DNA from: a virus
Taxonomy: Duplodnaviria > Heunggongvirae > Uroviricota > Caudoviricetes
Virus record (IMG/VR): IMGVR_UViG_2690316311_000021
Length of the DNA stretch: 5,979 nucleotides
Strand: one strand, 5' to 3'
Shown: positions 806 to 5,238 of the stretch, in pieces
How positions within the stretch are numbered: position 1 is the first letter of the stretch
Layout: each line of letters starts with the position of its first letter
Program-made: the position numbers and the translations under genes
The notes under the pieces: generated by a model
Told to the model about the DNA's origin: nothing
The model's input: the letters and a program-made list of their open reading frames with translations, nothing else
Databases searched by the model: none

Positions 806-1504
806 TTACCCGTTATCTCCTGTCGTTATTTTCTGTATGACATCACGATGCTTATTAATTTCCCGCAGCGCGGCGCATAAGCGCTCCCACTTCTGAACCT
901 GACCTTTTGCCCGGCGCAGCTCGCGGTTAGCCACATGCAGCGATGGTAAAATCAGACCATCCGGATGCTTTCTGATGAACGACGACTGTGACTGCACTGT
1001 GACCGCCACACTTTCAGTTTTAATTTCTTCCTGTGTTTCCGCTTCCCGGACTGGTAACGCAACACCTGCCGGCTGAGGAAAGGCTTTACCATCGGTTTCC
1101 GTTACCGATGCAGCTTTCGGCTCTGCCGGTAAATTATCGCCCGGTATGCAGTAACGATATTGACCGTCCTGATTTACGCGAATCAGACGACCTTTGCTGA
1201 CAGCCATCGCCAGTGATGAATTCGCCCGGCGGGAGGTAATCCCGAACATTAACGCCAGTTCGTCAGCCGACTGAGGACCATGCTGTTCAATCGCGTTAAT
1301 CAGCATCTCTGCAGTGGTTTTTGGGGCCGCTTCAGTTGCCTCACTCGTCAGCCACCACATCGACCCCTTGTTATCAGCTTCGCCACGACGCTTCAGCTTC
1401 CAGAGTTCGGTAACAGCATCGTCACGGCTGATTTCAAGACGGGCTGCAATCTCGTGCGACGAGGCTTTTTTCAGTGCTTTCAGTGCGTCAAAAACGGTTT
1501 CCAT
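806..1504 (-). CDS. Hypothetical protein with two predicted winged-helix-like segments and a C-terminal coiled coil (232 aa from ATG 1504; the ORF stays open to ATG 1570, 254 aa)
   Basis: Internal ATG at 1504 has a near-ideal RBS (GGGAGGAAAATTTA-ATG). ATG at 1570 has only AGGA at 2-nt spacing and would overlap the P-like gene by 32 bp. Two segments ([35 protein letters not shown] and [43 protein letters not shown]) look like wHTH recognition units. Confidence 0.65.
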
Positions 1505-1538
1505 TAAATTTTCCTCCCGGTAAAAATTACTTCTCAAC

Positions 1539-2201
1539 TCAGACAAAACCGGCCGCCTTCCGGCGCTCATATTCCTGTTTCAGCAATTCAATTGGCGTTG
1601 GCCCTGGCGGGCGTTTGGGTGCTGCCAGTTGTCGCCGGACTGGCGGAACACTGAGGCCATTACCAACATGCTTTGCCCATTTCGTCAGCTGCCTTTCCAC
1701 AAGCCGTTTTAACTCCCCTTCGGTCATCTGGCGCTCAATCCCCTTTGAACGCATCTCGAGGCAAATGTGGTACAGCACCGGCTGTGGCCACGGGTATTTA
1801 TCACTCCCGTCGTACCGCCAGGATTCATTCCTCCAGCGACGGTATTCCTCCATCACGGCATCCACCGTCAGGCCAAATGGATTTGCCCCGCTCTCCGAAA
1901 TCAACGCCACAAACTCAGCCAGATCCGGAGGCCACGTTTCACCCGCCCGGCAGCGGTCCATGCACCGACGGCAGATCTGCCGGATTTGCTGTTCAGTCAT
2001 CGCGCCAATCTGAGCAATCCAGAGTTTCGACGGCGCAGCCCCGTTCTTCTGAGTCCAGCGGTTCGAATACACCTCCCCCATAAGCTCCCACAGCTTCCAG
2101 GCCGTTTCCGTTGCTGATAAATCCGTTTTCACGTTCCCACTGTTCGCGTGCAGCCCGGATTTCCTGAACTGCCCGTGATGCGGTGCCACCTGGTGCTGCA
2201 T
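1539..2201 (-). CDS. Phage replication protein P-like (DnaB helicase loader); start uncertain (ATG 2201, 2081 or 2000)
   Basis: The C-terminal half resembles lambda P as recalled (ours ...[22 protein letters not shown]... / ...[23 protein letters not shown]; lambda P ...YPDAESYPWKSNAHYWLVTNLYQNMR... / EPVKQLPVMGGRPLNRAQAL). ATG 2201 has an AAGGGGG SD at 6-nt spacing but overlaps the O-like gene by 209 bp. ATG 2000 sits in a GATGACTGA coupling overlap with the O-like stop. Confidence 0.8.
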
Positions 2202-3030
2202 GGCTTACCCCCTTGCTGACTGGTTTTACCTGTGCCCTGACGTGCTGCACGTGGCGGGCAAATTTCTGCTCCCACTGAACCTGCGTGAAAACCTTCCCCT
2301 CCGCCATCCAGTAATCCCGGAATGCGGCAAGCTCAGCAGGTGTAAACTCAGGCTCAGGCAGAGCCATACCCCACACTGCTGCCCGCTGTCGAAAATCCGG
2401 CGACGGTTGCCAGACTCCAGTCATCGGAAATTTCCCGATCGGTTCGCTCAGGCCGTCCAGGTATTCAGGTTCGGCTGTCTGCAACGACGCGTCATTCAAC
2501 TCACCGGTCGTAGCACTCTCGCGCATGCGCGCGTTATGTGTGGGGTTTAATTCTTTATCTGTATCTGTATCTGTCGTGATTTGTCGTGACATATGCGTGA
2601 CGCGTCGTGACTCATCGTGACAATCAGTGTTCTGCTTCCGCAGTCTTTCCCGCTCCCGCTGCGCTCTCTTGCGCTCTGCCGGGGATTTTGCGGTTTGCGA
2701 AACATTACCGTTATCCTCCTTCATCACCTGGCGTTTTTCCCATCCGGAAATAAGATCACCATCCAGAACTCGCCCCTGCATTGCATGCAAAATTGAATCA
2801 ATCACGTCTTCCGTCACATCAAGCGCACTTGCTAAATCTTCCGTCGTGACATCAATGTGACCACGTAGTGACACGCCGTGACATGTCGTGACATTTCGTG
2901 ACGCACTCACCAGAAGGTGGATATACACCGCCATCACTGTTGCGATTGGCTGTCCTGAGACCCTGGCAATGGTTCGCCATTTGGGATCATTTGGCATGTC
3001 ATGCCACAATCTGAGCCAGGCATTAGCCAT
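1993..3030 (-). CDS. Phage replication initiation protein (O-like replisome organiser, possibly with a DnaT-like C-terminal region), 345 aa
   Basis: The long ORF occupies the position immediately upstream of the P-like gene. ATG at 3030 is preceded by GAGGTGAGT (SD); the ORF track starts at GTG 3036. The coding sequence contains two phased GTGAC repeat arrays (see repeat features), as in lambdoid phages where ori lies inside the initiator gene. The DnaT-like assignment is from memory and tentative. Confidence 0.8.
   Translation of the reverse strand: MANAWLRLWHDMPNDPKWRTIARVSGQPIATVMAVYIHLLVSASRNVTTCHGVSLRGHIDVTTEDLASALDVTEDVIDSILHAMQGRVLDGDLISGWEKRQVMKEDNGNVSQTAKSPAERKRAQRERERLRKQNTDCHDESRRVTHMSRQITTDTDTDKELNPTHNARMRESATTGELNDASLQTAEPEYLDGLSEPIGKFPMTGVWQPSPDFRQRAAVWGMALPEPEFTPAELAAFRDYWMAEGKVFTQVQWEQKFARHVQHVRAQVKPVSKGVSHAAPGGTASRAVQEIRAAREQWERENGFISNGNGLEAVGAYGGGVFEPLDSEERGCAVETLDCSDWRDD
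2556..2573. repeat. (TATCTG)x3 hexanucleotide tandem repeat in an AT-rich tract next to iteron array 1; encodes TDTDTD on the minus strand
   Basis: Direct reading: tatctgtatctgtatctg. The surrounding 2541-2573 is AT-rich relative to the rest of the gene. Confidence 0.9.
2574..2621. repeat. Iteron-like array 1: five direct (T)CGTGA(C) repeats at 10-11 bp spacing; candidate replication-origin iterons
   Basis: CGTGA(C/T) cores start at 2575, 2585, 2596, 2606 and 2616 (gtcgtgat / gtcgtgac / gcgtgac / tcgtgac / tcgtgac). The repeats fall in all three codon phases of the O-like gene, which argues for DNA-level selection rather than an amino-acid repeat. Confidence 0.55.
2845..2902. repeat. Iteron-like array 2: six direct GTGAC repeats at 10-11 bp spacing
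   Basis: GTGAC at 2846, 2857, 2868, 2878, 2888 and 2898 (spacings 11, 11, 10, 10, 10). Same core as array 1, about 225 bp away, also inside the O-like gene and not in codon phase. Confidence 0.55.
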
Positions 3031-3098
3031 ACTCACCTCATCTGATACCGAACTTTACCCTCGAACATCCGGAATAAATCCGGCATGAATATTGTTGG

Positions 3099-3524
3099 TC
3101 AATGCACGACAACAGCATTACCAGGCTGACCACCACTGTTAGTCAGGGTGCCCCAGGCGATCGCCGCTGCGACAAAATCATCCACATCTTTCACCAGCCG
3201 ATCCCTCCGTTCGACGATCTCACGGTAATATTCAGAGCTGTGACTGCGCATACGGGCCACCAGCAGAGGCGGCATTGCCTTTTCGATCGCCGGTAACAGA
3301 GCCTGAATTTTTTCAACAGCATCAGGGGTGTCTTTATCCAGCCAACGGAAAATTTTCTGGGTATTACGAGCCAGGGCTTCCGGATGGCTGTCGTCGTACA
3401 GTTCCGGGAACGTCATCCCCAGCTCGAAATAAGTCCGGGCTATTTCAGCTGCAGGAACTTTCTCACCGTCCGGATAGGCCCAGGCATTGATCGCCATGCG
3501 GATGTGCTCATGTTTGATTTTCAT
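3099..3524 (-). CDS. ydaT: YdaT-family protein (DUF1019; proposed CII-like regulator in cryptic prophages), 141 aa
   Basis: N-terminus MKIKHEHI... matches YdaT proteins of Rac/CP-933P-type prophages as recalled. It lies immediately downstream of the cro-like gene, its ATG (3524) overlaps that gene's stop (ATGA), and it is preceded by an AAGGGGG SD. Confidence 0.75.
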   Translation of the reverse strand: MKIKHEHIRMAINAWAYPDGEKVPAAEIARTYFELGMTFPELYDDSHPEALARNTQKIFRWLDKDTPDAVEKIQALLPAIEKAMPPLLVARMRSHSSEYYREIVERRDRLVKDVDDFVAAAIAWGTLTNSGGQPGNAVVVH

Positions 3525-3748
3525 GAATCCCCCTTTCCTTCGCCCTGAGTGGTATCCTTCTTTTTGTAAAGTTCTGGGTTCAAAGATAATTTCCCCTTGG
3601 AGTATGCAGCAGCTTCCGCAGCCCTCCCCTTCGGAACTATTTCACCAGGACGCTTACGCCACATGTAAATAGCTTCGCGGGTTATCCCATAAAAATCGGC
3701 AACCCTCTGAACAGAACCAAAAAACTGGACAAGTTCATCAACTCGCAT
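3521..3748 (-). CDS. dicC: Cro-like HTH regulator, DicC/YdaS family, 75 aa
   Basis: Strong RBS (AGGAGG-TAAA-ATG). It is divergent from the repressor gene. The sequence LVQFFGSVQRVADFYGITREAIYMWRK has the same pattern as DicC (as recalled) and lambda Cro ([26 protein letters not shown]). Confidence 0.85.
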   Translation of the reverse strand: MRVDELVQFFGSVQRVADFYGITREAIYMWRKRPGEIVPKGRAAEAAAYSKGKLSLNPELYKKKDTTQGEGKGDS

Positions 3749-3758
3749 TTTACCTCCT

Positions 3759-3826
3759 AAATCTAAGTATTTTTAGATTACAAGATAATTTTTTTTAGGT
3801 CAATGCAATCTAAAATAATTTATATT
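3759..3826. promoter_or_regulatory. Divergent operator/promoter region (OR-like): operator inverted repeats plus candidate PR (leftward) and PRM (rightward) elements
   Basis: Inverted repeat ATCTAA(3761-3766)-6 nt-TTAGAT(3773-3778); second imperfect repeat TTTAGGT(3794-3800)...ATCTAAA(3808-3814). Leftward candidate promoter on the minus strand: -35 TTGACC (complement of 3798-3803), 17-bp spacer, -10 TAATCT (complement of 3775-3780). Rightward candidate -10 TATATT at 3821-3826 just upstream of the repressor SD. Confidence 0.5.
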
Positions 3827-3842
3827 CAATTTGCAGGAGAAA

Positions 3843-4490
3843 ATGATGGAAAGCCTTGGCATCAGGCTTAAGAGACTTAGAAAAGATAAGGGGCTGACCC
3901 AAGTAGAACTGGGTAAGCTTTCAGGCGTGACTGGGGTTACTATAGGGTACTGGGAGAAAGATCTAAACGAACCAGGTAGCAAAGCTCTAAGTAAGTTAGC
4001 CCAGGCATTAGGAACTACTGAGTCCTATCTCCTATATGGAGTATCGTCTCCTGAATTATCTTTTGTACAAAGTACCTCAGGCACCAAGATCCCCTACCTT
4101 TCGTGGGGTGAGGCGATTTCTTTCCTAATCTTAAAAGGAGAGAAAACAATGGGAAATGTCGATAGGATCACCACATTCTTTGATGTCGAGGAAGGTGATT
4201 TTGCCGTTTCAATGCCTGATGACACAATGCATAACCCATCAGGATCACCGAGTATCCCAGTTGGTGCTACTGTGATCCTAAGGCCAGGAGAAAGTTATAA
4301 AAATGGCAGCATCGTCGCTGTAATAGTTCCGGATCCGCTTAAAAATGAACCATCTATGACTATAAAGAAATTAGTTATTGATGGGAAGCTTGTGTATTTA
4401 AGCCCTCTCAATCCACGCTATCAGTCATCCTTACTTACACCAGAGTGTAAAATTGTTGCCGTAGCAAAAGGTGTACAGTTCAACTTATAA
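3843..4490 (+). CDS. CI/C2-type prophage repressor: N-terminal HTH (XRE) plus C-terminal S24 LexA-like peptidase domain (215 aa from ATG 3843; alternative ATG 3846)
   Basis: SD AGGAG at 3835-3839. The N-terminus (LTQVELGKLSGVTGVTIGYWEKDLNEPGSKALSKLAQAL) is a classic HTH. The C-terminal region aligns with lambda CI and P22 C2 as recalled: a Ser in ...FAVSM... corresponds to the catalytic Ser of GNSM/GDSM, ...MTIKKLVID... to the catalytic Lys (FTFKKLIRD), and ...YLSPLNPRY... to LQPLNPQYP. Confidence 0.9.
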   Translation: MMESLGIRLKRLRKDKGLTQVELGKLSGVTGVTIGYWEKDLNEPGSKALSKLAQALGTTESYLLYGVSSPELSFVQSTSGTKIPYLSWGEAISFLILKGEKTMGNVDRITTFFDVEEGDFAVSMPDDTMHNPSGSPSIPVGATVILRPGESYKNGSIVAVIVPDPLKNEPSMTIKKLVIDGKLVYLSPLNPRYQSSLLTPECKIVAVAKGVQFNL

Positions 4491-5180: not shown

Positions 5181-5238
5181 TTTCTGGTGACGTTTGGCGG
5201 TATCAGTTTTACTCCGTGACTGCTCTGCCGCCCTTTTT
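5181..5238 (+). ncRNA. dicF: DicF small regulatory RNA (antisense inhibitor of ftsZ translation), 53 nt plus U-tail
   Basis: 5181-5233 (tttctggtgacgtttggcggtatcagttttactccgtgactgctctgccgccc) followed by TTTTT matches the E. coli DicF sequence as I recall it, and lies immediately upstream of dicB as in Qin. Confidence 0.8.

Follow-up and report, generated by a model that had tools for sequence, protein, structure and literature searches.

The 5,979-nucleotide stretch of DNA analyzed here (IMG/VR virus record IMGVR_UViG_2690316311_000021; the whole stretch is referred to as the window, and positions are numbered along it) comes from a lambdoid prophage of Escherichia coli O157:H7 and comprises its immunity and replication region. 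The minus strand encodes a replication initiator, and an initial annotation had described, within this gene, an array of five phased repeats as candidate iterons of a replication origin. This array (array B) is real; the annotation covered only one of two arrays, however, and missed array A, which is located 226 bp away in the same gene, is longer and has the same core. The comparisons reported below make it likely that the repeats are the iterons of a prophage replication origin that lies inside its own initiator gene. The gene, the proposed origin elements in it and the gene that follows it are:

1993–3036, minus strand: replication initiator gene ('O-like'), with the RefSeq start ATG at 3030.
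2844–2902, minus strand: array A, proposed auxiliary iterons; six direct GTCAC units on the coding strand, spaced by 10, 10, 10, 11 and 11 bp.
2813–2817: single inverted core copy located ~30 bp downstream of array A (plus strand GTCAC, coding strand GTGAC).
2574–2621, minus strand: array B, proposed core origin iterons; five direct units with the coding-strand core GTCACG(A), the last one being ATCACG.
2546–2573, minus strand: AT-rich, purine-asymmetric tract, candidate DNA-unwinding element (DUE), directly downstream of array B in gene direction; coding strand CAGATACAGATACAGATAAAGAATTAAA.
1539–2000, minus strand: lambda-P-type helicase loader gene (Pfam PF06992, E = 4e-16; PHROG 109, P-like helicase loader; RefSeq 'replication protein P').

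On the plus strand, the units of array B read TCGTGAT (2574–2580), TCGTGAC (2584–2590), GCGTGAC (2595–2601), TCGTGAC (2605–2611) and TCGTGAC (2615–2621). Their general form is (T/G)CGTGA(C/T) and their start-to-start spacing is 10, 11, 10 and 10 bp, which bears out the earlier description of five CGTGA(C) units recurring every 10–11 bp. The coding (minus) strand of the array, TGT CAC GAT GAG TCA CGA CGC GTC ACG CAT ATG TCA CGA CAA ATC ACG, is translated into C H D E S R R V T H M S R Q I T and specifies residues ~139–154 of the initiator (CHDESRRVTHMSRQIT). The G of the GTCAC cores falls on codon positions 2, 3, 1, 3 and 1, and the repeats thus use all three codon phases, as had been stated. 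The related claim that a peptide repeat does not explain the periodicity needs to be qualified. While the DNA cores are indeed kept at wobble sites (see below), array B also yields a secondary 7-residue peptide repeat (SRRVTHM/SRQITTD), because two DNA units (10 + 11 bp) add up to 21 bp or seven codons.

In array A, the plus-strand GTGAC motifs start at 2846, 2857, 2868, 2878, 2888 and 2898 (spacing 11, 11, 10, 10 and 10 bp). This array encodes residues ~45–64 (ASRNVTTCHGVSLRGHIDVT), a surface loop of the N-terminal putative DNA-binding domain, and belongs to the same feature as array B. Across the window, CGTGAC occurs 11 times compared to 2.35 expected copies (4.7-fold excess), a count that was reached in 0 of 200 shuffles, and 8 of the 11 copies reside in two clusters within one gene. 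When the window was simulated 2000 times with a first-order Markov model, the longest chain of any 5-mer phased at 9–12 bp comprised two members in 1839 runs, three in 159 and four in two runs. The observed chains comprise five (CGTGA, array B) and six members (GTGAC, array A), and no simulation exceeded four. Hence, the phased arrays are far beyond chance.

Both arrays are widely shared among homologous prophages. The initial annotation had proposed to look for the GTGAC periodicity at the equivalent position of such prophages, and it was present there in both arrays and in many genera. Evi (E. coli), phita81A (Pseudomonas) and pAEv1818 (Aeromonas), whose initiator N-terminal domains (N-domains) are 62–86% identical to that of the window, have both arrays at the same positions. 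Among 68 genome loci of 3.4 kb retrieved with an N-domain profile, both GTCAC arrays were found in 24 of the 26 loci with at least ~54% amino-acid identity. These loci were affiliated with Enterobacterales, Pseudomonas, Bordetella, Acidovorax, Chromobacterium, Aquitalea, Gilvimarinus and others. Within the gene, array A was located at nt ~116–187 and array B at nt ~376–500, with 3–6 copies each and a spacing of 10–11 bp, and other GTCAC copies were nearly absent from the 3.4-kb loci. All close viral contigs (80/80) contained six copies in array A and four to six in array B. Array B retained its place within the gene in every homologue of the GTCACG class.

To what extent the cores are kept independently of the protein can be read from 28 genes aligned by codon (median pairwise nucleotide identity, 0.67). 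The cores were ~95% conserved at every position irrespective of codon phase, and the spacers between them were variable. At third codon positions of conserved residues, conservation amounted to 0.946 in the cores (n = 12) versus 0.539 outside (n = 62; Mann-Whitney p = 1.2e-7). Since the cores are kept at wobble sites while the spacers drift, selection acts on the DNA motif and not on the peptide. The initial annotation had also considered homologues in which synonymous changes destroy the periodicity and leave the protein intact. We observed the opposite, with the cores held at synonymous sites and the rest of the gene drifting, and the arrays persist across genera at 53–67% nucleotide identity. 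Copy number is more variable: array A has four units in most homologues and six in the window and its close relatives, which is due to a 21-bp insertion (two units encoding the seven residues TCHGVSL, extra in the window relative to Evi), and array B differs among hosts by 21-bp and 9-bp indels. As copy number changes by in-frame indels of units (21 bp in the aligned examples), the protein seems to tolerate their gain and loss.

Some homologues stand apart. N-domain homologues in a Serratia metagenome-assembled genome (MAG; locus L053) and in Pantoea (L060) are fused to a C-terminal part that resembles a GIY-YIG nuclease motif (YVYYV...GISRNPWAR). They have CTACGTA-type repeats instead, are without the A-rich tract and may not initiate replication. 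Near-identical or close copies of the gene were also found under Gram-positive or Chloroflexi labels, namely in a Collinsella MAG (L065), an Anaerolineaceae MAG (L029) and Staphylococcus saprophyticus (P0042). These copies are on very short contigs, with a partial protein record, and the labels probably reflect contamination or mis-binning.

Distant homologues without GTCAC possess another core phased at one helical turn at the same two places, which is CGAACGC, GTAACG, TGCAACG or GTGACGC. Five core classes were distinguished in total, and ACG is common to all of them. Arrays A and B carried an identical core in every locus where both were detectable, and changes of the core tracked the descent of the initiator N-domain and affected the two arrays simultaneously. 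Pseudomonas alone hosts the GTCACG, GAACGC and GTGACG classes. Array A is dispensable in some lineages, in which array B is the sole array (L041, with seven CGAACGC units, L048, L057 and L063 are examples). Because array A can be missing and the A-rich tract is present nearly everywhere, array B together with the tract appears to be the universal core of the feature, and array A a frequent accessory that is kept matched. With regard to helical phase, the distances between the two arrays cluster at 227–231 bp and also near 9 modulo 10 (resultant length 0.59 at period 10), but these values are confounded by relatedness and by the counting of terminal degenerate units. Inspection by eye of an alignment sorted by class gave no clean assignment of specificity-determining residues, as the classes differ at many positions. 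Restriction or methylation sites were considered as a source of the motifs and rejected: a GTNAC-type site would fit GTCAC, GTAAC and GTGAC, but is ruled out by the GAACGC and GCAACG classes.

The single inverted core copy at 2813–2817 was invariant in an alignment of four hosts and 80–90% conserved in the 28-gene alignment, and may be a boundary or dimer site. In loci of the GTGACG class (L066–L069 and L072; gene nt ~159–180), an inverted GTCAC is found at the downstream part of array A or inside it.

Directly after array B, the region 2540–2579 has a GC content of 0.375 and an AT skew of −0.52. It is one of the two lowest-GC 40-bp stretches in 2400–3040 (tied with 2780–2819) and contains a 6-bp repeat at 2552–2574 (Tandem Repeats Finder). 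In nearly all homologues, and in every core class, array B is followed by a GATAAAGATAAAG-type (GATAAAG-type) or polypurine tract, with coding-strand forms that are purine-only and A-rich, such as CAGATAAAGATAAAGA, CAGATACAGATACAG and AGAGAAGAGGAGA. Homology of the window to PPompW and Actinobacillus phages is limited to 1993 to ~2570 (the C-terminal domain), and homology to Evi and its relatives to ~2552 to 3036. Since the homology blocks end there, a mosaic joint between the N- and C-terminal modules can be placed in the A-rich tract (breakpoints 2552–2570), which may also act as a hotspot where replication modules recombine by homology. Consistently, the N-domain and the arrays travel as one mosaic module that is paired with varied C-terminal domains (PF17948, PF09524 or none) and with varied helicase or loader partners.

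On its iteron-distal side, the A-rich tract is immediately flanked by a G+C-rich palindrome, CGCGCATGCGCGCG (2520–2533, within 2517–2545 on the plus strand). The lambda ori has a palindrome at the same relative position. In the prophage the palindrome sits in the C-terminal mosaic module and is, for this reason, not conserved together with the arrays.

The initiator is predicted to consist of a DnaD-like winged-helix N-domain (aa 3–102), a disordered linker and a DnaT-like single-stranded DNA (ssDNA)-binding domain (aa 203–269, encoded at ~2230–2430); the putative DNA-binding domain has the DnaD-like winged-helix fold. The loop encoded by array A is situated between helix 31–47 and helix 65–72, next to the wing, and its predicted local distance difference test score (pLDDT) is low at residues 50–56. 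The linker encoded by array B is predicted to be disordered, with pLDDT below 50. In these models, the loop and the linker are places of weak protein constraint, where a sequence dictated by the DNA would be affordable.

The label 'O-like' is appropriate for the role of this protein only, as the lambda O domain (PF04492, Phage_rep_O) was not matched in Pfam searches with the whole protein (E up to 0.01) or with aa 1–165 (E up to 10), and the initiator is no homologue of lambda O. Instead, TIGR01714 (E = 0.0033, 17.6 bits versus a cut-off of 49.8) and PF09681 (E = 0.015, 15.7 bits versus a cut-off of 23.3) aligned with the N-domain from end to end, both below threshold. The relative L034 reached E = 0.0014, and the members of the cluster are labeled 'phage replisome organizer' by NCBI. 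The C-terminal part contains PF17948 (DnaT-like ssDNA-binding domain, E = 1.4e-17). A full-length DnaT equivalog was rejected, as NF002770 scored 93.1 bits versus a cut-off of 201 and matched only aa 194–271. The Pfam RepA_N domain was not found in the initiator, and a search of PDB sequences with the N-domain profile yielded nothing meaningful. The initiator is probably of the replisome-organizer type.

The arrangement had initially been likened to ori-lambda, and in layout this comparison is justified. In both cases the origin, a proposed one in the window, is inside the initiator gene, between a DNA-binding N-domain and a partner-binding C-terminal domain; the iterons are followed by an AT-rich, strand-asymmetric region; and the gene belongs to a pR operon, downstream of cro and cII-like genes and followed by the gene of a lambda-P homologue. 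The comparison does not extend to the O domain or to the iterons themselves. Lambda has four iterons of 18–19 bp with internal dyad symmetry, each of which is bound by an O dimer, whereas the window has 5 + 6 asymmetric direct cores of 6–7 bp, at one-turn spacing and in two arrays. Furthermore, the lambda N-domain is unrelated, and the C-terminal domain in the window is DnaT-like. Lambdoid phages in general exchange the N-domain and ori as a specificity module, and the same holds for the N-domain and origin described here. From the short unit, a different mode of recognition had been proposed. This is correct relative to lambda, but not relative to oriL of phage SPP1, where the phasing is 11 bp by sequence reading.

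In SPP1, oriL is located in gene 38, contains iterons bound by the replisome organizer G38P and an adjacent AT-rich DUE, and drives reconstituted replication (PMC5737612, PMC6316719). We read in gene 38 GAAACGACA-like units phased at ~11 bp (nt 361–405, with GACA at 366, 377, 388 and 399), followed by an A-rich tract with 80% AT on the coding strand; from this reading of the sequence, the 11-bp repeats would be the published 'AB boxes'. SPP1 and the window share a central location of the origin (proposed, in the window) within the initiator gene, the short direct repeats, and their order and strand bias relative to the A-rich tract. Moreover, the C-terminal Pfam domain of G38P (PF09524) also occurs in P0099, where it is joined to an N-domain homologous to that of the window. 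Differences concern the core sequence, the partner proteins (G39P/G40P rather than a lambda-P-type loader) and the second array: gene 38 is without an in-gene array like array A, and the second site of SPP1, oriR, is kilobases away. No similarity between the N-domains of G38P and the window initiator was detectable (BLASTP E = 17).

A second precedent is provided by the RepA_N plasmids. In pSK41, four Rep boxes are located centrally in rep, the linker that they encode is dispensable, and the DnaD-like winged-helix N-terminal domain binds the boxes; the C-terminal domain is host- or partner-specific, and natural chimeras swap the N-domain and origin as a block of ~500 bp (PMC5703833). Most RepA_N iterons are semi-palindromes centered on a poly-A tract (PMC7145576). 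RepA_N initiators (pSK41 Rep, pTZ2162 RepA) resemble the window in that the boxes are central in the gene and encode a linker, and in their DnaD-like winged-helix N-domain. Unlike them, the window initiator has no Pfam RepA_N match, its cores are asymmetric and phased at one turn, and it belongs to a proteobacterial prophage, whereas RepA_N initiators occur mainly on plasmids of Firmicutes. Short (6–8 bp) direct repeats that form several clusters within or adjacent to the initiator gene are also known as the octamers of the P4 ori and crr and as the hexamer iterons of the SaPI ori, and the two separated clusters of P4 (ori and crr) are both needed for replication. The P4 and SaPI initiators are primase-helicase fusions, and these systems have a different geometry with neither a winged-helix replisome organizer nor a P-type loader.

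Judged from the sequence features, the repeats are likely to be the iterons of an origin from which the prophage replicates and which is embedded in the gene of its own initiator. This interpretation is favored because the phasing is beyond chance, the cores are under purifying selection at the DNA level, as seen at synonymous sites, and both arrays switch their core in concert. It is further favored because the A-rich tract adjoins array B, the arrays encode a weakly constrained loop and linker, and the N-domain and arrays move as a module, and because the proven precedents SPP1 oriL and pSK41 share the layout. Each prediction of the origin interpretation that could be examined in the sequence was borne out, and the initial proposal of candidate origin iterons is supported to this extent.

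By analogy with the known systems, replication could then start as follows. Single N-domains would bind the asymmetric 6–7-bp core GTCACG(A). At array B (2574–2621), the bound proteins would align head-to-tail on one face of the DNA, as the cores are direct repeats one helical turn apart. The resulting nucleoprotein array would destabilize the adjacent A-rich, strand-asymmetric tract (2546–2573), and the C-terminal domain, together with the lambda-P-type loader encoded downstream, would recruit the host helicase DnaB onto the opened DNA. Array A, ~230 bp upstream, could provide auxiliary sites that are joined to array B by looping, or could serve titration or autoregulation. Head-to-tail binding, opening of the tract and delivery of DnaB go beyond the sequence features themselves, and we infer them by analogy.

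Several points weigh against an origin at this place. The tract is short (~28 bp) and only moderately AT-rich (GC 0.375), and a few family members (L054, L055, L058 and L059) have no detectable array. The link between core and protein is partly co-inheritance rather than demonstrated co-evolution, because the classes are defined by the lineage of the very gene that contains the arrays; only the concordance of arrays A and B and the synonymous-site test are independent of this caveat. In addition, the reference prophage may be defective: in strain PV15-279, it adjoins tRNA-Ser/mtfA/yeeJ and its integrase is interrupted by IS1203. As a prophage with an integrase disrupted by an insertion sequence (IS) may be defective, its origin may be out of use. 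Finally, a search of the literature on GTCACG iterons, replisome-organizer iterons and DnaT or O-protein iterons found nothing on these repeats or this family. A paper on the replication regions of Stx phages mentions neither iterons nor origins.

Among the other explanations, the one that fares best assumes that the repeats are initiator sites used mainly for control, by roadblock autoregulation of the pR-operon transcript, titration or handcuffing, and that replication truly starts elsewhere. Two separated arrays of identical sites indeed recall the control iterons of plasmids, and array A resides in the 5' part of the gene, far from any AT-rich tract, and is absent in some lineages. However, array B is always directly joined to the A-rich, strand-asymmetric tract and occupies the same central linker position as the proven SPP1 and pSK41 origins (PMC5737612, PMC5703833), and apart from a two-copy pair there is no other phased array in 24.5 kb of the prophage. 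We therefore regard a mainly controlling function of the repeats as unlikely; it would suit array A by itself better than array B.

A variant of the origin interpretation would make the origin bipartite and self-encoding, with the loop encoded by array A (aa 45–64) taking part in DNA recognition or oligomerization, but we consider this quite improbable. If it were true, the same nucleotides would specify a site and a part of the protein that reads it. This would create a built-in route to concerted specificity switching (GTCACG, GAACGC, GTAACG, GCAACG and GTGACG) and to new incompatibility or immunity groups among co-resident prophages.

It is very unlikely that the repeats are bound by another protein, be it a host factor, a phage repressor, Cro, the CII-like protein or the terminase (as a pac-type site). 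Phased short repeats do occur in pac sites and operator arrays as well, but here the choice of core follows the initiator N-domain lineage, whereas the regulators, the type of helicase or loader and the C-terminal domain vary freely among phages with GTCACG arrays. A host factor would also leave unexplained why five cores exist across overlapping hosts, three of them (GTCACG, GAACGC and GTGACG) in Pseudomonas. DnaA-box-like sites were not enriched (15 found versus 12.2 expected), and none was at the arrays. Although the location in loop- and linker-coding DNA, the unit indels and the 7-residue peptide repeat could suggest a functionless by-product, such as a slippage minisatellite in a tolerant disordered part or a result of peptide or mRNA selection, this explanation is largely refuted and hardly credible. 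A period of 10–11 bp cannot be divided by 3, and all three codon phases are used by the cores. Conservation is confined to the 6-bp core, wobble positions included, whereas a neutral minisatellite would decay or homogenize as whole units. The arrays persist across genera at the divergence given above and change their core together over 230 bp, and Rfam finds nothing at the arrays.

The part of the initiator gene that contains the proposed origin (2540–3036, 497 bp) is 100% identical to a stretch in many O157:H7 chromosomes. The loader gene is directly downstream of the initiator gene and overlaps its end. The mechanical open reading frame (ORF) of the loader (1539–2201, minus strand) extends 201 nt upstream of the RefSeq start at 2000, and its overlap with the initiator gene is 209 nt versus 8 nt for the RefSeq form. 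Further features of the window are:

3831–4490, plus strand: CI/LexA-type repressor.
3521–3748, minus strand: cro.
3099–3524, minus strand: CII/YdaT-like gene.
806–1570, minus strand: DUF1627 gene.
5182–5233, plus strand: DicF antisense small RNA (sRNA), full length (Rfam RF00039, 76.7 bits, E = 3.4e-16).

DicF was the only Rfam match and is far from the arrays. In the reference genome, dicB is annotated just downstream of DicF, and owing to this adjacency the early-left region of the prophage is taken to harbor a Qin/Kim-like dicBF cell-division-inhibition cassette. A simple scan for sigma-70-like promoters detected none in 2300–3900. Within the DUF1627 gene, two CTGTGAC copies 11 bp apart (986–1003, plus strand; GTGAC at 988 and 999) have the same orientation as the origin arrays. 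They are the only other phased core pair in the 24.5 kb of the prophage and may be due to chance or represent a stray initiator site.

An origin inside the initiator gene is an already known kind of arrangement. New here are the definition of the sites across the family, the second in-gene array and the five natural specificity classes that switch in both arrays. The module of N-domain and origin was found in 644 of 5426 complete E. coli genomes and in up to four places per O157:H7 genome. In RefSeq, the genes are named only 'DnaT-like ssDNA-binding domain-containing protein' or 'phage replisome organizer', and the examined records are without an origin annotation. If the sequence-based assignment is correct, the origin of replication is located at base-pair resolution for a prophage module that is very common in E. 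coli, and for its relatives in many Proteobacteria.

Prophage-prophage interactions have been documented in O157 (PMC2669165). Several co-resident prophages share one origin specificity, and cross-activation or incompatibility between them is therefore possible. After induction of one of them, co-resident GTCACG prophages could fire each other's origins, which bears on in-situ amplification, lateral transduction and such interactions. Beyond these hosts, the five core variants with their shared ACG and the matched initiator domains represent a data set for how a DnaD-like winged helix reads DNA, and the variants could serve as mutually compatible, orthogonal origin-initiator pairs.

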